Source of the DNA: a virus
IMG/VR virus record: IMGVR_UViG_3300036772_000367
Span: 91,227 to 155,226 of that record
Direction: 5' to 3' (one strand)
DNA: 64,000 bases
Shown here: positions 3,179 to 40,100 of the stretch, piece after piece
How the letters are laid out: each line of letters begins with the position of its first letter
Position numbering within the stretch: position 1 is the first letter of the stretch
Position numbers and translations under genes: made by a program
The notes under the pieces: model-generated
What the model was told of the DNA's origin: nothing
The model's input: only the letters and a program-made list of their open reading frames with translations
Database searches by the model: none

Positions 3179-5012
3179 TGCTGCGGATATTGCTAGCAAC
3201 ATGATTGCGGCACTCCAGGTGTCTATTCCAAACTTGGACACCTCGATCGGCACACCGTTGCGTCATGTACTGGACTCGCTCAGCGAACAGATCGCTGAGG
3301 CGTACACAGATGGTTATCTGATCAACTACCAGTACGACATCGACTCCAAGGTCGGTGGTGACCTGGATGACTTCTGTTCGCTGTTCGGGATTACACGTAT
3401 TCCCGCGCAGCGGGCCACGGGCGTCGTGACCTTCAGCCGACCGAGTGACGCGAACACACTGGCCACGATCGTGACGATCCCGCCGGGCTCGCAAGAGATC
3501 GCGATGACCAACCCGATCGTCTACTGCCAGACCACGGTGTCGGCCATCATGAACGTCAATGACTCCACGGCGAATGTGCCTGTGCAAGCCGTGGTAGCGG
3601 GTTCTCAGGGTAATGTGCCGGCTGGGCTGCTCAACACGATCGCCTCGGCGCTCAGTGGTATCACCTCCTGCACCAACACCAGCGCTCTCACCGGAGGTCA
3701 GGACCGGGAGTCCGACACAGACCTGCGGACGCGCTTCAAGCAGACTGTGTTTCGTTCCCTGGCGGGCACCTCGGCCATGTATCAGGCCATTGCACAGTCC
3801 GTTCCGCAGAACCCCACTACGGCTTCGACGTTCGCGGTGAAATTCACCAACATCATTGGCTCCTCGAAGCGTTGGCAAGAACAACTTCAGGTTGTCAGTG
3901 GCACAGCCACCAGTACGGTGACGAATGCGGCCTACATCTTTCCCGACAACGTCTTCTGCGCGGTAGATCTATCCTCGGGCGTTTTCCTCAACCAAGAAAC
4001 AGATTTCAGCTTTGCCCCCACCAATCCCACGGATGGGATCAGCAACGCTAGTGCGGTGCTGACATCCTTGAGTTCCACCACGATGCCAGATGGACTATAC
4101 GATCTGGACTTCGAGTATGTACCGCAGGCATCACGCAATGATCCCGGCAATACAAGGTTCGGCCAGGGTGGTATTAATAATCGCATTGACGTCTGGTGCA
4201 ACGGTAGTATTCCACAGTCGGCGACGCAGAATGTGGTCTTCTCGACGGCACTGACGTTCTCGACGTTGTCGACGAGTCCGTACTACAACGTCAAGTACAG
4301 CATCGGTAAGACGGGATCACAGACGCCGACGGCTGGGCAAATCTTCGTTCCCCTGAGTTATGGGCCCATTCTCAATGTCCCTTTGACACTAACGATAGGC
4401 GGCACTGTCTACAATTATCTTACAGATTACTTCGCGGTGCATCGCACTGACTGTTTCGGCTACACCATGAACAGCACCTTCGGTCTTGCGTGGACCACTA
4501 CCTCCGGCCGCATCCCGGCCAACGGCTCCATCATCACGCTGACCTACACCTACAACCAGGTGCCGTCTTTGGTTCAGCAATCGATGGAACAGTGGCGGCT
4601 GGTGGGCACCGATGCCAAGGCGCACGCGGGCAAAACCATCCCTCTGTTGTTCAATTTCGCCATCGTGTTCGATCAACGTTTCGACTCGACAGCGGTGACG
4701 ACGAGCATCAACGATGCCCTAGCTGCTTATCTCAGTACCATTGGGTTCGATGCGACCCTCAGGGTGGCTGGAGTTCTCAACGTCGTCAGCAATGTGGCGG
4801 GAGTACTCAATGCACGATTTCTGACCAGTACCGACAACAGTGGGCAGTATGCTATCTGTCGGATGTCCAACTGGGTGCCGAACACTATCGTCAGCATTTA
4901 CAATCAAGGTGGCCGAGCCACAGACATTGCATTCGCCGATGATCAATACCCCGTTTTTTCAGCGACGAACATTGTGACCAAGGCGCAAAACACTTTCACT
5001 ATCGGAGCATAA
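3171..5012 (+). CDS. Baseplate J-like protein
   Basis: LDDFCSLFGITRIPAQRATGVVTF, GSQGNVPAG and GGQDRESDTDLRTR are hallmark baseplate J motifs. Confidence 0.9.
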   Translation: MPSAADIASNMIAALQVSIPNLDTSIGTPLRHVLDSLSEQIAEAYTDGYLINYQYDIDSKVGGDLDDFCSLFGITRIPAQRATGVVTFSRPSDANTLATIVTIPPGSQEIAMTNPIVYCQTTVSAIMNVNDSTANVPVQAVVAGSQGNVPAGLLNTIASALSGITSCTNTSALTGGQDRESDTDLRTRFKQTVFRSLAGTSAMYQAIAQSVPQNPTTASTFAVKFTNIIGSSKRWQEQLQVVSGTATSTVTNAAYIFPDNVFCAVDLSSGVFLNQETDFSFAPTNPTDGISNASAVLTSLSSTTMPDGLYDLDFEYVPQASRNDPGNTRFGQGGINNRIDVWCNGSIPQSATQNVVFSTALTFSTLSTSPYYNVKYSIGKTGSQTPTAGQIFVPLSYGPILNVPLTLTIGGTVYNYLTDYFAVHRTDCFGYTMNSTFGLAWTTTSGRIPANGSIITLTYTYNQVPSLVQQSMEQWRLVGTDAKAHAGKTIPLLFNFAIVFDQRFDSTAVTTSINDALAAYLSTIGFDATLRVAGVLNVVSNVAGVLNARFLTSTDNSGQYAICRMSNWVPNTIVSIYNQGGRATDIAFADDQYPVFSATNIVTKAQNTFTIGA

Positions 5013-6323
5013 ATGACAACTCCGGTGAACGGTTCCATCTTCAACTCGAACCTACCCAGTTTCTTCGACAAGTTCTCGTCAGCGGCAGCCCAGGACTTGA
5101 TGACGCTTCAGCTCGTTGCTGGGCAGCTGGAGCCCTCCGGTGGCATCGTCACGGTGACCAATCCGATCATTCCCGATCGGACCGTCGCACAACGCATGAA
5201 TAACTTCGACCCGACGATCTACGATCTCCGAGACCAGTCCACCTTGATGAAGATCATGAAGGTGCTCCTGGGAGGTGCTGGGGCCGGTGGGCTCCGCAAG
5301 CAGTCAGCGATCGCTCGGCTACAGAACACCTTCTCGGGGATGCACTTCCTGGACCTGGATCGTTTTTACGGCGCACTGTTCGGGATCTCCCGGACTGCTC
5401 AAGAGGGTGCGCCGGATATCGACTTCGATCCCTACCACGATGCCACCGATCCAGCATCCTGGGATGACCTTCAGGCACGCGATGCCAGCTACCGCGATCG
5501 ATTGATCAAATTCGCCAAGAGCATCTACTTCGGAGGATCGGTCGCCGGCATCACTGCAATGGCCGAATCCTTGATCGGCGCGCAGGTGGATGTGTACGAG
5601 TCCTGGGAATGGGTGGACGAGGAAAACGCCGATGTCCTCGTGAACTCCACCTTGATCTATACGTACACGTTCTTGAACCGCAGTGTCGGAACATGGGCTG
5701 GATTGACGGGTCATACCTGGGCAGACTGGGGTGGTGGTACGTTGCCCTTCGTCGGGAGAACAGGTCAGCGCAACCGCAGCGAGTTCATCCTTCAGCCGCA
5801 TATCGCCCTCACGATCGACGAGCGATACGAGATCTTGCGGGTCATCAACACCTTCAAGCCTGCCGGAACCCAGTTCACCATCAATCCCGCTGGTCTGACT
5901 ACACAGACTCCGATCAGTTTGCGAGCAGTCGCCGCCGATTCAGAATACTGGGCTATCATTCCCGTGACGGTACCCAACCCACAACTGGGTACGAATGTAT
6001 ATATTCCTAGTGGTGATATCACTGTTCGATCGGTTATTCAACAGAGGCCGGCATTCTCTCAGTTTCAAGGAGATGACTGGTCGTATAACAATGACATTCT
6101 CGGTGTTACGTCATATACGATCGATAACGGCGTCACGAGTACGACAACGGATGATCAAACAGTGGTGTATTCCGATAGCACTACCCGTACCTACGTAGCG
6201 GCAGCGGCCCCCATGACCGGCGCGCAGGCCATCTCGGCACGCATCGTGTCCGACGGCGTACTCACCGCGACCCCCTATGCTCCAACGAGAGGTTCCATCA
6301 ACACCGCATTGGTGACCACATGA
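5013..6323 (+). CDS. Baseplate wedge / tail protein (gpI-like)
   Basis: Follows baseplate J. Contains DLDRFYG...DASYRDRL...GGSVAGI and INTFKPAGT. Confidence 0.65.
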   Translation: MTTPVNGSIFNSNLPSFFDKFSSAAAQDLMTLQLVAGQLEPSGGIVTVTNPIIPDRTVAQRMNNFDPTIYDLRDQSTLMKIMKVLLGGAGAGGLRKQSAIARLQNTFSGMHFLDLDRFYGALFGISRTAQEGAPDIDFDPYHDATDPASWDDLQARDASYRDRLIKFAKSIYFGGSVAGITAMAESLIGAQVDVYESWEWVDEENADVLVNSTLIYTYTFLNRSVGTWAGLTGHTWADWGGGTLPFVGRTGQRNRSEFILQPHIALTIDERYEILRVINTFKPAGTQFTINPAGLTTQTPISLRAVAADSEYWAIIPVTVPNPQLGTNVYIPSGDITVRSVIQQRPAFSQFQGDDWSYNNDILGVTSYTIDNGVTSTTTDDQTVVYSDSTTRTYVAAAAPMTGAQAISARIVSDGVLTATPYAPTRGSINTALVTT

Positions 6324-19183: not shown

Positions 19184-19954
19184 TTACCGGAGGTCGGTCA
19201 ACGGGTCGAACAGGTAGCCGAAGATCCTGCGGCCGAGGGTACGCTCCTGCTCCACGACGAGAGTATTGCCCTCGGAGCGAGCGGCTTTGACCGCGCGACG
19301 CAGGGTGTCGATGCGCTGGATCAACTCCACCTTCACCGAAGCGCGGATGGCGCCGGACGTCTTCACCGTCGCCCAGTAGCCGACGATCACGTCCTCGTAG
19401 AACATCTCGACCTGCGCCGGGTGCTTGTCGGTGGCCGGAGCCTTCTCGTGGTTGCGCGGGACCTTCTTGGTGCGGGTGGTTTCCGTGGGCACCGTCGCGA
19501 AGGCCACGGCGTCGTTGTTGTAGGACCACGTCTCGGCCGGGTCCAAGGTGGGCACCAGGCTGACCACCTTGCGCAGGTCGGTGAGCTGCTTCTCCAAGAA
19601 GATCAGGTAGGTCACCGGCACGTCGACCAGAATCGCGTCCGGCTGGCCGTCCAGCTTGACCGTGGCGACGGCACTGGTGTTGGCCTTCACCGAGGTGAAC
19701 TCCAGGTTCAACAGGTCCGCCAGGCTCTCCTGGAGGCCGTCGAGCAGCTCCGGTACGCGAAGCTGGACCTGGGTCTGCTCGGCCGGCAGCTTGTCGCCCT
19801 CGTCGTCCTTGGGCTTGTAGGTGCGCTGGATGCCGGCCATACGGCTGGTCTGAGTGCTGTTGAAGGTGTGCAGGACGCCTTCCAGCGACTTCTTGGCGCG
19901 GTTCTTGGCGTCGGGCAGTACGGCGAGGATCTGGCTGAGGCGAGTGGTCGCCAC
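19184..19954 (-). CDS. Conserved actinobacterial hypothetical protein, ncRNA-associated
   Basis: LSQILAV...GIQRTYKPKDDEGDKLP...VPVTYLIFLEKQL...APATDKHPAQV matches a conserved hypothetical family I recall from Streptomyces (possibly DUF7873; unverified). Strong codon bias and GGAGG RBS. Confidence 0.8.
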   Translation of the reverse strand: MATTRLSQILAVLPDAKNRAKKSLEGVLHTFNSTQTSRMAGIQRTYKPKDDEGDKLPAEQTQVQLRVPELLDGLQESLADLLNLEFTSVKANTSAVATVKLDGQPDAILVDVPVTYLIFLEKQLTDLRKVVSLVPTLDPAETWSYNNDAVAFATVPTETTRTKKVPRNHEKAPATDKHPAQVEMFYEDVIVGYWATVKTSGAIRASVKVELIQRIDTLRRAVKAARSEGNTLVVEQERTLGRRIFGYLFDPLTDLR

Positions 19955-20772: not shown

Positions 20773-21372
20773 ATGCCCCATCAGGTCAAGACCCTCGTCG
20801 GGAATGTGACTCTACCGTCCGACGATGAGGGCCCGCCGATTTCCGTCCAGGCCGCGCAACAGACCATCACGTTGACGGACGCGCAGTATGCGAAGATCCC
20901 GCCCGCCGCTTTCGCCAGCATGTCGTTCTACCAGGAACTGACGCCCGACCAGATCTCTAACGCCAACGCGCCGTACCAGGGCCTGTACTACTCCCTCACC
21001 GGCACGCACAGCGCCTACCTCCAGGACCTGGGGGCGACTGCCGGCGGCAGTATTCTGGTCACGGCTCAGGGCACGCACGTCGCTGCGATGGGTGCTCTGA
21101 CCTCGTCGGCCCCAGCGGCCGTGACGTCCAGTCAGAACGCCACGACCATCGCGGTGACGCCCGCCAACGCGTCCTACACCCAGGCTGACCAGACCACGAT
21201 CGCCAACCTGGCGAACGCCCTGAAGATCAGCTACAACGCCGCGCAGGTCGACATCGCAGCCCTGCGCACCACGTTGGCCGCAGTGCAGACCGACTTGGCG
21301 ACACTGCGCACGTTGGTGAACACTGAGCTGGCCGCCCTCCAGATCACAGGTGGTCCGCAGGCAGCGAGCTGA
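20773..21372 (+). CDS. Hypothetical, possibly structural (Ala/Thr-rich, C-terminal coiled coil)
   Basis: AGGAG RBS, strong codon bias, followed by a hairpin. Confidence 0.65.
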   Translation: MPHQVKTLVGNVTLPSDDEGPPISVQAAQQTITLTDAQYAKIPPAAFASMSFYQELTPDQISNANAPYQGLYYSLTGTHSAYLQDLGATAGGSILVTAQGTHVAAMGALTSSAPAAVTSSQNATTIAVTPANASYTQADQTTIANLANALKISYNAAQVDIAALRTTLAAVQTDLATLRTLVNTELAALQITGGPQAAS

Positions 21373-21385
21373 CCTGTAGAAGCAC

Positions 21386-21421
21386 CTCGACCCCGCACCT
21401 CCTCCAGGGTGCGGGGTCGAG
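21386..21421. terminator. Probable bidirectional terminator hairpin
   Basis: 14-bp stem CTCGACCCCGCACC/GGTGCGGGGTCGAG, between the convergent gene and the array. Confidence 0.7.
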
Positions 21422-21462
21422 TCTGTCTAGAAATATGGAAAGCGACGACGCACTCCTGGACT

Positions 21463-22464
21463 GGAACACCCATCGATGGCTTGGCGAATGAATCACCCCA
21501 ATGAAACACTCTGGATCGCGGTGTGTGGAATACCCATATAAGATGTCGCGAACGGAACACTCCAGATAGTGGCGAGAAGTCGTCGGGCGTGGAACACCCG
21601 TAACTGCCAACACGCCAAGGAGGAACACCCTCAAATCGGCGCGTACCTGTGCTATGGAACATCCCCGTAGAACAAAAGACCCGCTCGGCTACCGCTGTCG
21701 GAACACCCCGTGTACGTGGGACAGATAGGTGGACCGACGATCTACGCCGAGGCCGGGAGGGAACACCCTCAGGAATCAAGGTCATCGCCCTGGGACGGGA
21801 GGGAACACCGGACCCTGCTACATCGGCAGCGGCAAGTGGAACACACAGGCAGTGGTGAGGAACGTCGGGGGAACACCCTGTTCGGATTGCTTCCCCCGTA
21901 GGAATACTCTCACAGGTACCGGTAGACGTGCCGAGAACACCCTGTACGGCATGATCGACTGATCGTCGCGGAACAAACCCTCAGATCTTTCGGATGACCA
22001 GGTAGCCCAGAACACTCTCGTGAGAACACTCTTGTACAGCGGGAGTTATACAAGTTCGCTGGAGCAGCCTCGCATACACGGGACAGATCTGGAGCCGCGC
22101 GGGAGGGGAGAACACCCCTGTGTACGTGGGATAGACCTTACGTGTGTCGGCGTAAGCCCGTACAGCAGAAGAACACCCTCGCGTACACAGGAAAGACGGC
22201 CCGCCGTCGCTGTCCGCCTTGAGTGGAACAACCCTGAGTACGTGGGACAGACGGACCCTTCTTGCCGAGCCACAGTCTGTCACTCGGAACACTTCTGCGT
22301 ACGTGGGACAGACCGCTCGAAGCGATCCTTGAATGCCTGACGAGCCGGAATACCCCTGTGTACGTGGGCAGACCTTGGCGGTATTCGCGGCCCGGAACAC
22401 ACCCGCGTACGCGAGACAGACGGCGGCCCTGTAACCACGGATGGATGAGCCAACGGAACATCCC
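21463..22464 (-). CRISPR. Degenerate type I-E-derived CRISPR array (~25 units; 8 near-full repeats, ~17 truncated to 9 nt)
   Basis: Full 27-28-nt repeats (+ strand consensus GGAACACCCCTGTGTACGTGGGACAGAC) at 21700, 22061, 22109, 22170, 22225, 22286, 22347 and 22394, with five exact 33-nt spacers. Short RGAACACYC units at 21463, 21503, 21527, 21554, 21591, 21622, 21656, 21760, 21802, 21838, 21870, 21901, 21934, 21970, 22009, 22023 and 22455. Confidence 0.85.
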
Positions 22465-22499
22465 GTCAGGGCACCGATTTCCCGTGTCCATATCACTAT

Positions 22500-22640
22500 G
22501 TAGATATAGGGGTGTGTCAGGAATTACTTCCTGGCGGTGGCCATCTGACGATGGTCTTCTCGTTTCACCGAGGACTGCTCACCATTGCTGGTGAGACTGA
22601 CATTCTCTCCACGAGCGTTTAATGTCTCCCCTGCTCCAGA
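22500..22640 (-). ncRNA. Putative TnpB omega-RNA (reRNA) overlapping the tnpB 3' end
   Basis: TnpB omega-RNAs are known to overlap the gene's 3' end. Hairpins GACCATC..GATGGCC and CAGGAA-GTAA-TTCCTG are present. Boundaries are approximate. Confidence 0.5.
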
Positions 22641-23966
22641 GGCGACAGATCGATCAGGGGCCCATTCCACCAGATTTCTGGCGGCATTCACGTCCCGATT
22701 GAGGACGAGACCGCAATGATCACAAACATATACTCTGTCCTGGAGGTTCAGCGTGGCTTTAACTGAACCGCATCGAGAACATACTTTACTGGAAGGAAAA
22801 AATCTGTCTACCACGGTCAGGGCAGATCCGTACCACTGGGTCTTGTAGTCCAGTTGGCGGCGGAACTCACCGAACGCGGCATCCAGAATCGAGCGCGAAA
22901 GACCTGATTTCGCTCGAACATTCTTGCCGGGCTTCTCGACGGTGCCTCGGGCTGAGGCTGTCATGCCGAGTACGTTCAGATCTTCGATGGCCACGCGCTC
23001 GTACTGCGTAGCCAAGTTCTTGGTCAGCCCGTGCAGGAACGATGCTCGTTGCTCGGCGACCTGGTGGTGAATGCGGCCGACCCGAACTGCCGCACGATGA
23101 CGTCGTGCAGAGCCCCGTTCGGTCCGACTCAGTCGCCGCTGTGCTGTGCGCAGTCGTGCGGCAGCAGCGCGGACGAACCGAGGATTGTTGATCAGGGTGC
23201 CGTCCGAGTAGGCGGCCAGGTGCAACAAGCCCACATCGACACCGACGGCACCACGGACACGCTGGGCACGCGTGGTGGGCCGGAGAACGTGCTCTGCCGG
23301 CTCCTTCACCAACACGGCCGCGTACCACTGCGAAGCGCCCCGAGATAGCGCCACGGACTGAATCCGGGCACCCCTACTCAGGGCACGCACCAGACGCTTC
23401 GCCGAGGAGTGCAAGCGAAGCGACCCGAGTCGGGGAACGAGTAGGTGCCGGTATCCATCCGGGCGGATGGTAGGCGACTTGACATCGTGGTAGATCCGGA
23501 ATGAGTCGCGCGAGCGACCCTTCTTCTTGAACTTCGGGTAGCCCATCTTCCGGCCTTTGCGTTTGCCGGTGAGGGAATTCATCCAGTTCTTGAAGGCAGC
23601 ATCGGCATCGGAGAAGGCCGAGGAGAAGGTGTAGGAGGACACGGTGCGCCACCAGGGGCTGGCACCGTCCTCGCCGGTCTTCTCGTCGCCTCGGATCTTG
23701 ATCCACGCACTCTTCATCGTGAAGGCCGTCGGGATCTTGATCGACACCTGCTTGCGGGCGACCTGCTCGTCTAGGCCCTCGTCCACCAGCGCCTGGACCT
23801 GGTCACGCCAGGTCTGATGCACGCCGATCTTCACCGCCAGGGCGTGATTGAATGCCCATCGAGCGGTGCCGGCGTGCTGTGCCAACGCGGACAGCTGGTT
23901 CTGGTTGGGGTCCAGGTTGAAGCGGTACGCGCGGAGGATCGTCGCCGACTCATCGGACTCGGTCAT
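22524..23966 (-). CDS. tnpB: RNA-guided endonuclease TnpB (IS200/IS605/IS607 OrfB family), no tnpA nearby
   Basis: N-terminal HTH (RAYRFNLDPN...AGTARWAFN), RuvC-I GVDVG, RuvC-II IEDL, Zn finger CSRC/CDHC, RuvC-III RDVNAARN. AAGGAGG RBS before ATG 23966. Confidence 0.93.
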   Translation of the reverse strand: MTESDESATILRAYRFNLDPNQNQLSALAQHAGTARWAFNHALAVKIGVHQTWRDQVQALVDEGLDEQVARKQVSIKIPTAFTMKSAWIKIRGDEKTGEDGASPWWRTVSSYTFSSAFSDADAAFKNWMNSLTGKRKGRKMGYPKFKKKGRSRDSFRIYHDVKSPTIRPDGYRHLLVPRLGSLRLHSSAKRLVRALSRGARIQSVALSRGASQWYAAVLVKEPAEHVLRPTTRAQRVRGAVGVDVGLLHLAAYSDGTLINNPRFVRAAAARLRTAQRRLSRTERGSARRHRAAVRVGRIHHQVAEQRASFLHGLTKNLATQYERVAIEDLNVLGMTASARGTVEKPGKNVRAKSGLSRSILDAAFGEFRRQLDYKTQWYGSALTVVDRFFPSSKVCSRCGSVKATLNLQDRVYVCDHCGLVLNRDVNAARNLVEWAPDRSVASGAGETLNARGENVSLTSNGEQSSVKREDHRQMATARK

Positions 23967-24115
23967 CTCACGCACCTCCTTCAGTCGCTGGAACCGGTAA
24001 CACGTAATCTACGCATGTCTTCCGCAGAAGTCAAACTACTACGGAGGTAGTTTTCTCTTCCCTCGGAGGTCACTGGGCTGCTACACTTCCTAAAGACGCC
24101 AACCGCACCGGAGGA

Positions 24116-26110
24116 ATGAGCGCCATGAGCTGGAAGTCCGCACAGGCCGCATTGTCCGCAAGCCTGCCCCGCTACGAAGACCGCCCCGAGCAGACCCGCC
24201 TGGCGACCACTATCGAGCAGACCTTCGCCACGGGCACGCACGAGCTGGCCCAGGCCGGTACGGGCACCGGTAAGTCCCTCGCCCTGCTGATCCCGGCCAT
24301 TCAGTACTCCCTGGAGACCGGCGGCCCGGTGGTTGTGGCCACCGCGACCAAGGCCCTTCAGGACCAGTACGCCGGCAAGGACCTGCCGTTCCTGCGCGAG
24401 CACCTGGGTGTCGAGTTCGACTACGCGGTGGTCAAGGGTCGCAGCAACTACATCTGCCTGGCGAAGGCCAACGCTCTGGCCCCCAACGTGGTGCAGAACC
24501 AGGTCGCGCTGCTGGAGGAGTTGATCACCCACAAGACCGGCGACTTCGACGAGCTGGCCACCGTCATGGACCCGCGTGACAAGCCGCAGCTGACCACCGG
24601 TTCGGACGAATGTCCCGGCAAGCGGGACTGCCCCTTTGGTGAGATGTGCTTCGCCGAACAAGCCAAGCAGCGGGCGCGCGAGGCCAACATCATCGTGGCC
24701 AACCACTCGGTGCTGGTGACCGATCTGGCCGTGAAGCAGGCAACGGCGGGACGCGGTTCCCTCCTGCCCGACTACGACGCGGTGGCCATCGACGAGGCCC
24801 ACGAGCTGGAGGACTACACCACCAACGCCATCGGCGGGGAGTTCACCCAGCGCAGCTTCACCGCGTACTCCACCGAGGTCGCCAGCTTCCTGCACGACCC
24901 GAAGATCACCCAGCAGGTCAACGGTGCCGCCCAGCGGCTGTTCACCACGCTGGAGCGGTTCCAGGGCAACGAGAAGACCCGGAACCTGACCGACATGGCC
25001 GTGTTGGACCACGAGTCTGAGTTCATCGCCGCGATCGACGCGCTGCGCACGCTGCGTACGCACGTGGAAGCCGAAAAGATCGTCGGCAACGACGACGCGG
25101 CCGGTCGGCGCAAGCGGTTGCTCAAGCGGGGCAAAAGCCTGATCGACCGGCTGGTGGCCGTGGTGCTGTCGGACTCCGAGGACTTGGTTCGCTGGGTGGA
25201 GCGCGACGACAAGCGTGGCGTCATCCTGAAGTACGCCCCCCTCTCGGTCGCGAGTTTCCTGCGGGAGAACCTGTGGCAGCAGGTCAGTTTCCCGGACTCC
25301 GACCTGGGCGACAGGCTGCCGGAGGTCACCAACCGGACCGTGATCCTGCTGTCGGCCACCCTGGCGCTGTCCGGAGACTTCGGCTACATCGCCTCCCGGT
25401 TGGGTCTGGACGAGTACAACTCGTTCGACGCCGGCACGCCGTTCAACTACCCGCAGCAGTCGGCCCTCTACGTTCCGCAGACCGACTTCGATCCCTCGCA
25501 GGGTTTCACCTGGCAGGCCAAGATGTCCGCGTCCATCGGTGAGATGGTCAAGGCAGCCGGTGGCCGGGCGCTGCTGCTGTTCACCTCGCGCACCGCGATG
25601 AACGCCGCCTACGACACCACGGCCAACCAGATGGCCGCTGCCGGCCTGACGGTACTGCGCCAGGGTGACAGGCCCAACCGGCAGCTCGTGGACGAGTTCA
25701 AGGCCGATGAGACCTCGGTTCTGTTCGCGCTGAAGTCCTTCATGACCGGTGTGGACGTGCAGGGCGATGCCCTCCGGCTGGTCGTGATCGACAAGCTGCC
25801 CTTCCCGGTGCCCACCGACGTCATCGTCAAGGCCCGTGCCGACGCCGTTGACGCCAAGGCGAGGAACAAGTGGGTGGATGGTGCCTTCCCCACCCTGACG
25901 GTGCCCGCCATGGCGCTGACCCTGATGCAGGCGTTCGGTCGGCTGATCCGGACCCGGGACGACGAGGGTCTCGTTGCGATCATGGACTCGCGGTTGTACT
26001 CCAAGAAGTACGGCAAGAAGATCCTCGCCGCACTGCCGTCGGCCCAGCGGTTGACTACGCTGACCGAGGCGACCGACTACCTGGCGGAGCTGACCAAGCG
26101 TCGGGGCTGA
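24116..26110 (+). CDS. dinG: DinG/YoaA-family Fe-S helicase
   Basis: Q motif RPEQ, AGTGTGKS, KGRSNYIC plus C..CP..C Fe-S cysteines, DEAH, SATL, GVDVQG, QAFGRLIR. Confidence 0.93.
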   Translation: MSAMSWKSAQAALSASLPRYEDRPEQTRLATTIEQTFATGTHELAQAGTGTGKSLALLIPAIQYSLETGGPVVVATATKALQDQYAGKDLPFLREHLGVEFDYAVVKGRSNYICLAKANALAPNVVQNQVALLEELITHKTGDFDELATVMDPRDKPQLTTGSDECPGKRDCPFGEMCFAEQAKQRAREANIIVANHSVLVTDLAVKQATAGRGSLLPDYDAVAIDEAHELEDYTTNAIGGEFTQRSFTAYSTEVASFLHDPKITQQVNGAAQRLFTTLERFQGNEKTRNLTDMAVLDHESEFIAAIDALRTLRTHVEAEKIVGNDDAAGRRKRLLKRGKSLIDRLVAVVLSDSEDLVRWVERDDKRGVILKYAPLSVASFLRENLWQQVSFPDSDLGDRLPEVTNRTVILLSATLALSGDFGYIASRLGLDEYNSFDAGTPFNYPQQSALYVPQTDFDPSQGFTWQAKMSASIGEMVKAAGGRALLLFTSRTAMNAAYDTTANQMAAAGLTVLRQGDRPNRQLVDEFKADETSVLFALKSFMTGVDVQGDALRLVVIDKLPFPVPTDVIVKARADAVDAKARNKWVDGAFPTLTVPAMALTLMQAFGRLIRTRDDEGLVAIMDSRLYSKKYGKKILAALPSAQRLTTLTEATDYLAELTKRRG

Positions 26111-26136
26111 CACACACACGATCTTCCTTTACACTC

Positions 26137-37159: not shown

Positions 37160-40100
37160 ATGCATGTGGTTCATGCCTATGCCTCGGGTATCATCGACAT
37201 TGATGACATCAAGCTTCCTCGGCATAGTTTGATTGAAGATGTCGATGGCATTCGTTTGTTGTTCATCGATAGTGCCTACATTCCTCAGGCAGAATGGATC
37301 GACGCAGCGAACCGAGGAGCCCAAGCAATTCTATGGCTAGGTGCTGATCTTCGTATTCGCTATATTTCGGTAGAACGTTATGCCGAGGAGAAGATCTCTT
37401 CGGAGCGCAATGCTATGTTGTGCTTCACGGTGCCAAAGACATCTTGGAATCGATGCGATCGACTGCTGTCCTACGTCGAGATGGACTTCCAGGCCCGGGA
37501 CGTCCAGGGCTTCGTGCACCTACATACCCACAGTGAACACTCGGCGCTGGACGGCATCTCTACCATCGAGGAGATCATCGACGCGGCGCTGGCGGACGAC
37601 CAGCAGGCCGTCGCCATCACCGACCATGGAGTCTGTGCCGGGCACCCGGTCCTGGCACTGGCGGCCGAGAAGAAGGGCATCAAGCCCATCTTCGGCATGG
37701 AGGCATACCTCGTTGATGACCGCCATGCCCGTGATGGTAAATCCAACGACTACTGGCATCTGGTGCTGTGGGCCATGGACGACGAGGGGCTGCATAACCT
37801 CTGGGCCATGTCCACGGAATCTTACCGCGAGGGTTTCTACTACAAGCCCCGATTGGACTGGGATACCCTCCGGCGGCTGAATAAGGGTGTCATGGCATCC
37901 ACCGCGTGTCTCGGTGGTCCACTGCTGGATCCCTGGCAGTCCGGTGATATTGACAAGGCGATCACCAATCTCGCTCAGCTCAAAGACATCTTCGATGATC
38001 GCCTCTACATCGAACTTCACGTCAACCATCTGGAACAACAGATCGCGGGTAACCACTGGCTCGTCGGTATCGCCGAGCAGTACTCGGTGCCGATGGTGGC
38101 CGTCGTGGACTCCCACTACGCCACCCAGGACGACGCTCACGCCCATCGGGTCTGGCTGGGCATCCAGACCAACACCGACGTCCAGGACGACGACACCACG
38201 CTGTTTGCCGGAGATCAGGACTACCACCTGATGACCGAGGCCGAGGTGCGTGAGGCACTGTCCTATCTGCCCGTCGAGATAGTGGATGAGGCCGTACGCA
38301 ACACCGCACGGGTGGCGGCACGATGCACCGCGAGCATGACCGGCAAGGGCCACAACCCGGTCTACACCCGCAAGCTCAGTACTTCCCACGAGGAGCGTGC
38401 CCAACTCGATGCCGAACGGCTGCTGGACATTTGCCTGGAGCGCTGGGAGCTGCGCACCGGAGGCAAACAGCAGCCGCAGGATGAGTACCTGGCCCGATTT
38501 GAACGCGAAATCGAGCTGATCATCAAGAAGGGTTTCGCAGGCTACTTTTTGATGAACTGGGATCTCGTGAGCTATGCCAAGTCACATGGTGTGCTGGTGG
38601 GTCCGGGTCGAGGCTCTGGTGGTGGTTCTCTGGTGGCCTACGTTCTCGGCATCACCGAGATCGATCCGGTAGAAAACGATCTGCTGTTCGAGCGGTTCAT
38701 GACCGAGGGCCGAGTCGAGTTGCCGGACTTCGACATTGATTTCCCCAGTTCCCGCAAGGGGTTCATGCTCGACTACGTTCAGCAGCGCTGGGGAGCGGCC
38801 CACATCGCCATCGTCGGGACGCATCTGCGGCTGAAGAACAAGGGCGCCATCAACGACACGGCCCGCGCCATGCGGTCTCAGTTGCCCGACACGACGCTCG
38901 CTGACCTACAGCTGGTGTCCAAGCTCATCGACGCGGCCGAGGCCAGCACAGCCGGTCTGGGGCTGTCGTGGGATGACCTCTGGGCTGAGCACGGAGAGGT
39001 GCTGGAGCCCTTTCGGGAGCGCTACCCCGAGCTATTCGCTATGGCAGCCAAGCTCCGGGGTCGGTTGAAGACCTACAGCAAGCACGCGGCAGGCGTCATC
39101 ATCGATCCCGACGATGAGTTGACGGACTCCCTACCGCTGTGGTCGGGTACCGACCAGCCCTACATGACCACCCAGTTCGACAAGAACGTCTTGGAGAAGC
39201 TGGGATATGTCAAATTCGACATGCTGAATCTACGTAACCTCGACACTATTCAGGACTGCGTGGATCTCATTCATGAAAAGACTGGCCGGTGGATCAGTCC
39301 CTACGATTGGCGCGACGAGTACGCGGATCCCTATGTTTGGGACGAGATCTCCGACGGCTGGACACTGGGCATCTTCCAGGTCGAGACGACAGCTGGAACC
39401 CGGTTGACCAGACGGTACCGCCCCCAGAACGTGGCAGATCTGGCGAACATCATCACGCTGGTACGACCCGGTCCCACGCGCTCCGGACTGACCGAGACCT
39501 ACTTTCGACGCCGTACGGGTGAGGAAGAAACCACCTTCGTTGACCCTCGTCTGAAGATGGTGTTGGCGAAGACCTACGGCACGTTGCTGTATCAGGAAAA
39601 TATCATGGCTACCACGATGGCGTTGGCTGGCTACGGTGGTGACGAGGCTGATGAAGTACGCAAAATTCTAGGTAAGAAGCTTGTAGAAAAAGTAGCTGGA
39701 GCTGGACGGAAGTTTAAGCAGCGAGCTATTGAGAATGGTACCCACGAGGATGTCGCAGAACTTCTCTGGGACCAGATGGCTGAGTTCGCGAAGTATACCT
39801 TCAATGAAGCACATGCTTACGCCTACGCTATCATTGGCTACTGGACAGCGTGGTTGAAGTTCCACTATCCGGTGCAGTACCTGTGCGCCTCTCTATCCAC
39901 GATCAAACAGGAGCGCATTCCTGAATTCGTGGAAGAAGCCCGGCGCATGGGCTACCAGGTTTTGCCGCCAGACGTCAATGAGTCCAAGATCGGCTTCACG
40001 GCCCAACAGATGTCCGTCCGCTATGGACTGATGTCGATCAAGGGGATCGGGGAGATCGCCGCACAGGCCATCATCGCGAACCAGCCCTACAAGTCCTGGG

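Follow-up and report, generated by a model that had tools for sequence, protein, structure and literature searches.

Does a gene for a TnpB-like nuclease, followed on the same strand by a CRISPR array in a phage genome, represent a new kind of system, a known system carried by a phage, or two chance neighbours? The locus lies in the stretch analysed here (64,000 nucleotides (nt), which we refer to as the window), the last 64 kb of a 155,226-bp IMG/VR virus record (IMGVR_UViG_3300036772_000367) which CheckV rated 100% complete and which carries baseplate, tail, terminase and DnaE-type polymerase genes. The original prediction had seen a candidate new TnpB-CRISPR system, formed from a solo phage TnpB and a captured host type I-E array. 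We find that the locus is very probably a CRISPR module of type V-N (Cas12n), borne by the phage and belonging to the AcCas12n-like clade, which shifts it from a new TnpB-CRISPR hybrid to a phage-borne member of a described group. As judged from its sequence, the nuclease gene (which we refer to as cas12n) belongs to the Cas12n/type V-N family (formerly V-U4, C2c9); the locus is not a new kind of system, as it shows every type V-N feature that can be assessed in silico, and virus-encoded V-U4 nucleases have been predicted before (PMC12607003).

By PDB scores, identity and tree position, the effector is nearer to characterised Cas12n than to transposon TnpB. The cas12n open-reading frame (ORF; 22524-23975 on the minus strand, with an ATG at 23966 and an alternative GTG start at 23975) matches the Pfam families HTH_OrfB_IS605, OrfB_IS605 and Cas12f1-like_TNB. 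The best PDB match of its product (P0001) is 9J09 (E-value 3.3e-94), the Cas12n of Rothia dentocariosa (RdCas12n), a type V-N protein formerly classed as V-U4/C2c9 (PMC12216341), with ISDra2 TnpB (1.6e-46) and LaTranC (1.7e-18, confined to residues 299-439 in the RuvC/TNB part) both far below. With a 505-aa protein of Actinomadura craniellae (P0078), P0001 shares 54% identity across 474 residues. The RuvC acidic residues and the zinc finger are intact, as had been noted beforehand: D247, E331 and D428, and the cysteines C399, C402, C418 and C421, align to those of RdCas12n and are invariant in a 16-sequence alignment. In a quick IQ-TREE phylogeny, an array-linked clade of 55 rows, with both P0001 and P0078, split from the array-less TnpBs (SH-aLRT 100), and within it P0001, P0003, P0004, P0005 and P0007 formed a supported subclade, all on contigs with genes common to this phage. 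The segment FRIYHDVK of the phage protein aligns with the PAPEK loop of RdCas12n that reads the protospacer adjacent motif (PAM), and its YHDVK matches the HHDV(K) PAM-loop motif described for AcCas12n-like proteins (PMC12216341). The monomeric state, disordered C-terminus and ORF-overlapping trans-activating CRISPR RNA (tracrRNA) described for Cas12n (PMC12216341) would all fit the phage locus. The absence of tnpA and cas genes, first remarked in the window, extends to the whole 155,226-bp record, where searches found no Cas1, I-E Cas2, CasE, Cas7e or Cas3-HD, and neither a resolvase-type TnpA nor a Y1 TnpA (Y1_Tnp). The lack of an adaptation module (Cas1, I-E Cas2) in the whole phage matches a feature of Cas12n, and the marks of an IS607/IS605 transposon, a TnpA or multiple mobile copies, were not found at this locus, cas12n being present as a single copy in the phage genome.

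A tracrRNA-like scaffold is predicted across the 3′ end of the gene, covering the final ~120 nt of coding sequence and running on ~20 nt past the stop codon. In an RNAalifold consensus of 10 loci, 38 pairs were predicted in silico, 23 of them with compensatory changes, and the nucleotide block over the ORF end is kept in two relatives (L002 and L004) although the reading frame stops earlier there. The GUAA-loop hairpin that spans the stop codon keeps eight of eight pairs in the 10 loci, six with changes on both sides, and directly 3′ of it lies an anti-repeat, predicted to be single-stranded, which is complementary to the 3′ part of the repeat. The two change together from locus to locus: ACACCCC with repeat GGGGTGT in the window, ACATCCCC with GGGGATGT in L003, CCATCCC with GGGATGG in L004, CCTTCCCC with GGGGAAGG in L010, CAGCCC(C) with (G)GGGCTG in L008 and L097, and TCACCC with GGGTGA in L085. 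The cognate duplex of the window anti-repeat (ACACACCCC) with GGGGTGT has a predicted energy of −13.8 kcal/mol; over the 10 loci, cognate duplexes averaged −13.1 kcal/mol against −7.8 kcal/mol for non-cognate pairs, with none of 20,000 permutations as good (p < 5e-5). The predicted geometry is that of stem 5 of the RdCas12n single guide RNA (sgRNA), and the last bases of the repeat stay free for a pairing such as that in the pseudoknot which this sgRNA contains (PMC12216341). The classical omega-RNA of a solo TnpB, supposed by the original prediction, is a poor description of this arrangement: in place of a single omega-RNA with a right-end flanking guide, we found a scaffold and, downstream of it, a multi-unit array of 1 kb whose handles co-vary.

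The array comprises 26 minus-strand sites with two or fewer mismatches from GGGTGTTCC, between 22463 and 21462, and 11 of the 20 plus-strand copies of GGAACAC in the whole genome sit in this 1.1 kb. That an array of about 25 units follows the gene on the same strand and ends at a strong hairpin was correctly predicted; the type I-E architecture ascribed to its units, 28-nt repeats with 33-nt spacers, holds for only about one third of them. Full 28/29-nt repeats (consensus GTCTGTCCCACGTACACGGGGTGTTCCG) make up 8 of the 26 units, seven proximal to the gene and one at 21699-21726, and the remainder are short, handle-only units 27-64 nt apart. In the distal 660 nt, an unbiased 7-mer count with one mismatch allowed gave 11-18 hits for repeat positions 18-28 (GGGGTGTTCCG), where ~1 is expected, and 1-7 hits for positions 1-17. 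A similar bias occurs in two relatives: L003 has eight near-perfect 29-nt repeats (GTCTTCCCCGCTTACGCGGGGATGTTCCC) and then a degenerate tail in which repeat positions 18-22 are kept, and in L004 GGATGGTTC occurs nine times within 370 nt but nowhere in the other 18.5 kb. As this bias recurs in the window, the L003 tail and L004, with a handle particular to each locus, these counts indicate that selection is retaining exactly the scaffold-pairing part of the repeat, not the hairpin half needed by the I-E Cas6e. The full repeats of the window form weak sense-strand hairpins (−2.4 to −6.0 kcal/mol; those in L003 reach about −14 kcal/mol) and look like the repeats of mycobacterial Cas12n arrays such as L187, which are regular and have hairpins just as weak; this argues that the array arrived with the gene and was not freshly captured from a host I-E locus. 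A recent capture, as originally proposed, is also made unlikely by the co-variation of repeat and tracrRNA along the protein tree. Most gaps from handle to handle in the distal array measure 17-34 nt and would accommodate a ~20-nt guide. Three guides (21751-21809 and 22095-22107, minus strand) begin with an identical (C)CCTCCCG directly after the handle, which suggests either unit duplication or a common target family. Tandem Repeats Finder and Rfam reported nothing in the array, and two ORFs inside it (21231-21785 and 21981-22496) were rejected as genes, having no family hits.

The linkage of gene and array is conserved. At each of the three closest homologs, recovered from Logan assemblies and 79%, 74% and 66% identical, repeat units follow the gene immediately (L002, L003 and L004; the L002 contig ends within its array), and relatives 52-62% identical, on IMG/VR, Mycolicibacterium, Streptomyces, Kitasatospora and Mycobacterium contigs, have 61-nt arrays, mini-arrays of two to three repeats, or a single unit. 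Counting relatives of at least 50% identity with enough downstream DNA, nearly all carry arrays: an array or mini-array was found in L003, L004, L005-L010, L085, L086, L097, L186 and L187, and a single repeat unit only in L167 and L185. One relative of 38% identity (L011) also has an array, and among TnpB loci of 43% identity or less an array-like repeat was found in only 2 of ~140. No array without a cas12n gene was found on any related contig. On the two questions posed with the original prediction, whether close homologs also flank such arrays and whether related phages carry the array alone, the comparisons favour its proposal that the array works with the TnpB-like protein as its partner, and the sequence evidence supports a functional pair over chance neighbours. 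Three bacterial genomes with Cas12n arrays were also searched, G001 (Mycolicibacterium, L085), G002 (Streptomyces, L086) and G003 (Kitasatospora, L097); in two of the three there was no Cas1 match, thus Cas12n arrays do not always stand alongside an adaptation module.

Table 1. Coordinates of the cas12n locus and its predicted RNA and array elements in the window.
Feature	Position	Strand	Basis or remark
Sigma-70-like promoter candidate TTGACT-17-TAGATT	24006-24034	-	consensus scan only
cas12n (TnpB-like effector, 480 aa from ATG)	22524-23966	-	Pfam, PDB match, tree
tracrRNA-like scaffold (predicted)	22503-22647 (RNAalifold consensus 22503-22659)	-	RNAalifold, nucleotide conservation
GUAA-loop hairpin CCAGGAAGTAATTCCTG spanning stop codon	22518-22534	-	RNAalifold alignment columns 144-163
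Anti-repeat ACACACCCC	22509-22517	-	complementary to GGGGTGT of repeat handle
First handle-only unit GGGATGTTCCG	22454-22463	-	61-70 nt past stop; repeat 5′ half missing
Proximal array, 7 full 28/29-nt I-E-derived repeats	22060-22421	-	spacing mostly 61 nt
Distal compacted array, ~18 units with only 3′ handle GGGGTGTTCCG, plus full repeat 21699-21726	21462-22059	-	
Perfect 14-bp inverted repeat at array end	21386-21421	.	likely bidirectional terminator

The candidate promoter sits in a 150-nt divergent gap between cas12n and its upstream neighbour, a plus-strand DinG-like helicase gene (24116-26110) with DEAD and Helicase_C_2 matches. A minus-strand ORF of 712 aa (23981-26119) overlaps the helicase gene in a stretch of 65% GC; it is probably spurious and was rejected as the upstream gene, since only the plus-strand ORF has family hits. 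On the other side, a 199-aa gene (20773-21372, plus strand) is convergent with the array, the terminal hairpin lying between them (the fold of 21380-21430 reaches −32.4 kcal/mol), and L003 has the same layout of cas12n, array, hairpin and a facing homolog of the 199-aa gene. Further downstream, the window encodes a DUF7873 protein (19184-19954, minus strand, E-value 3.8e-83). In L002 the cassette stands beside the same DUF7873 gene, inverted relative to the window, and in L004 and L165 it adjoins genes from other parts of the phage genome. Altogether, five related phage contigs (Logan contigs L002, L003, L004 and L165 among them) show the cassette in at least three genomic contexts, and the homology of related contigs to the window begins within ~15 nt upstream of the start codon, which suggests that the cassette is moved or swapped as a whole. 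The phage itself is only distantly related to known phages, its DnaE polymerase being only ~31% identical to those of cluster-C mycobacteriophages and other known phages, and GenBank phages yielded no megablast match to the region. Neither a first IMG/VR scan with a single protein, which found no relatives, nor the scaffold-block patterns, which had no match in IMG/VR or Joint Genome Institute (JGI) metagenomes, extended the family. A triple-handle scan of IMG/VR returned 16 contigs which were rejected, as they held short coding tandem repeats or an iteron-like region and none had a Cas12n gene. The latter region, at 3400-5050 of a 145-kb contig from an unrelated low-GC phage (L173), consists of dense palindromic CAGGGGTGTTCCCCTG-type motifs on both strands and resembles an iteron or origin region. 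In L185 (1690-1880), the single full repeat is followed directly by tRNA-gene-like sequences with GGTTCGATCCCTGG and GGTTCGAATCCTCG T-arm motifs.

How might such a locus work? Cas12n would be transcribed from the divergent intergenic region, and the 3′ end of its transcript would fold into the tracrRNA-like scaffold, presenting the single-stranded anti-repeat after the GUAA hairpin. The downstream array, transcribed and processed, would supply CRISPR RNAs (crRNAs) in which the last ~11 nt of each unit pair with the anti-repeat, the UCC of the handle perhaps pairing also with the pseudoknot strand as in RdCas12n, and in which the ~20 nt 3′ of the handle act as guide. The nuclease, a monomer with an intact RuvC triad, would then cut matching double-stranded DNA beside a putative 5′-AAN-type PAM, which we infer from the alignment of YHDVK to the PAM loop; competing phages, plasmids or host loci would be the likely targets. 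Over time, the 5′ halves of the repeats and the 3′ ends of the spacers would have decayed or been deleted and the array compacted into handle-plus-guide units, because adaptation genes are absent from the phage and Cas12n requires no more of the repeat than its 3′ end. We put forward, tentatively and with slightly less than even confidence, that selection streamlines the Cas12n arrays of adaptation-less phages into handle-only guide cassettes, an 11-nt remnant with a guide of ~20-30 nt being a sufficient crRNA.

Several observations weigh against a working Cas12n module of this kind. Some distal gaps (3, 4 and 14 nt) could not fit a guide, thus part of the array may be dead. The spacer comparison suggested with the original prediction yielded no target: by blastn against GenBank phages and plasmids, the window and L003 arrays gave chance-level hits only (E ≥ 1 for the window guides), a blastn-short search with the guides as queries found nothing significant in the phage's own genome or in any of the retrieved loci (the relatives' sequence available for this amounts to only about 30 kb), and IMG/VR contained no match to either of two exact guide 20-mers. 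The link to the characterised protein is also indirect: P0078 is probably the published AcCas12n because the species is the same and the lengths nearly agree (505 aa against a reported 506 aa, PMC11641405), an identification made from organism and length only. Finally, at 7-9 bp the predicted anti-repeat duplex falls far short of the native stem 5 of RdCas12n; a short duplex is nevertheless plausible since an RdCas12n sgRNA with a shortened repeat:anti-repeat stem 5 was still active in bacterial targeting (PMC12216341). Outside the window, one spacer of L007 (4973-5005) resembles positions 38772-38805 of Streptomyces phage Ponzi, at the junction of two minor tail protein genes (31/33 with one indel, E-value 0.07). 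This borderline match, which may be a diverged protospacer, has a 5′ flank of AGG or GAG, not AAN. The full repeat had no exact match in JGI metagenome contigs.

Of the readings that compete with a phage-borne Cas12n module, the one with most in its favour is a decaying remnant, in which cas12n and a few proximal units may work, the distal ~600 nt are dead and the handles there were kept for reasons other than guiding. Repeats do diverge, and spacing does become irregular, with distance from the gene; together with the gaps too short for a guide, the lack of targets, and the lack of adaptation genes, owing to which the array cannot be renewed, this gives the remnant a real but minor share of the probability, and we regard it as unlikely. 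Neutral decay should erode all positions alike, yet only the 11 tracrRNA-pairing nt persist at 11-18 copies where ~1 is expected, and the same biased retention recurs, with a different, co-varying handle, in the tail of L003 and in L004. In ordinary arrays, moreover, it is at the 3′ end that terminal repeats tend to degenerate, the opposite of the pattern in the window. Selfish homing is improbable: here the guides would cut cassette-free alleles in co-infecting related phages and repair would copy the cassette in. TnpB promotes transposon retention through guided cleavage (cited in PMC11656645), and the several genomic contexts of the cassette, with its inversion in L002, would suit such behaviour, but no guide matches either the DNA of the relatives, as far as checked, or the phage's own genome, and 26 units exceed what homing would need.

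The two remaining explanations give the array a role without the nuclease. As an RNA anti-CRISPR decoy (Racr-like), its repeat fragments would mimic the crRNA handles of a host I-E system and sequester Cas proteins. Single phage-encoded repeat units can inhibit host CRISPR (reviewed in PMC11656645), and the kept motif includes the equivalent of the 8-nt I-E 5′ handle (TGTTCCG). The kept block, however, reaches into GGGG, whose sole partner is the tracrRNA anti-repeat in trans, the motif co-varies with the scaffold of each locus and not with a host repeat, and the units always accompany an intact nuclease gene, which leaves the decoy very improbable. Least probable of all, and hardly credible on present evidence, is a chance insertion of a TnpB insertion sequence beside a phage mini-array served by a host type I-E Cascade, the alternative offered with the original prediction. 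The repeats are of a common actinobacterial I-E type, similar but non-identical ones (no more than one mismatch from CCCCGC-N4-GCGGGGRTGTTCC) occurring in 68 of 401 sampled Actinomycetes genomes, mostly in 61-nt arrays, and there are known cases of phages whose mini-arrays exploit host CRISPR systems (PMC11656645). We nevertheless reject a chance insertion next to a captured host I-E array, because the pair is kept, on the same strand, in nearly all close relatives and the anti-repeat co-varies with the repeat; in addition, the hairpins which Cas6e needs are weak in the full repeats, most units lack the hairpin half altogether, and the gene is single-copy with no tnpA.

A phage-borne Cas12n module remains the reading that we prefer. 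The Cas12n family is regarded as the earliest step from TnpB to Cas12, and the locus adds an actinobacteria-type phage lineage to the few predicted virus-encoded V-U4/V-N systems. In three related phage loci, only the 11 tracrRNA-pairing nt appear to have remained, independently, under selection, with the I-E-type hairpin half and the regular spacing lost; to our knowledge, and in the literature that we found, no earlier account describes a phage subclade with such conserved compaction to 11-nt handles. Were the short units active, they would provide a natural read-out of the minimal Cas12n crRNA handle, that is, of the minimal repeat required, would show what becomes of an array that no longer has access to Cas1-Cas2 and Cas6e, and would suggest very compact multiplex guide cassettes for a miniature editor. 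If handle-only streamlining is true, it would take a CRISPR array one natural step back in the direction of a multi-guide locus like that of an omega-RNA.

Compared with known systems, the array shares with type I-E arrays and with phage mini-arrays that depend on host Cascade the 28/29-nt repeat, spacers of ~32 nt, the 61-nt period and the CCC...GGG(G)-xTGTTCC repeat layout, all as in actinobacterial I-E arrays. It differs in the absence of I-E cas genes, in hairpins that are weak or absent and in selection that appears to act only on the part pairing with the Cas12n scaffold; a stable Cas6e hairpin and a regular 29/32 unit were not found. TranC (LaTranC, PDB 9JFO) is likewise a TnpB-like nuclease with a crRNA and a tracr-like RNA, from a split omega-RNA, but the phage protein is of another lineage, to which LaTranC is only a distant match. 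With IS607/IS605 TnpB and its omega-RNA (ISDra2 TnpB, PDB 8H1J/8EXA), the locus has in common the protein fold and domain set, a guide scaffold encoded over the 3′ end of the ORF and a guide 3′ of the scaffold; the phage locus, in contrast, is single-copy without TnpA and has its guide moved onto a multi-unit array, the similarity to ISDra2 TnpB is much weaker than that to Cas12n, and a fully supported branch separates the phage protein from array-less TnpBs. From the described Cas12n systems (AcCas12n, RdCas12n), the locus differs in its place on a 155-kb lytic-type phage, in a five-member phage subclade, in units which are mostly an 11-nt handle with gaps of 17-34 nt in place of 29-nt repeats with 32-nt spacers, and in the shorter predicted anti-repeat duplex. 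It is nonetheless to Cas12n that the likeness is most complete: an effector of miniature, TnpB-like size in which the RuvC triad and the CCCC zinc finger are intact, a YHDVK segment like the HHDV(K) PAM loop of the AcCas12n type and an actinobacterial lineage (PMC12216341), a tracrRNA, predicted here from sequence, over the 3′ end of the ORF, a same-strand array downstream with no adaptation genes, and a repeat whose 3′ part is predicted to pair with the tracrRNA anti-repeat.

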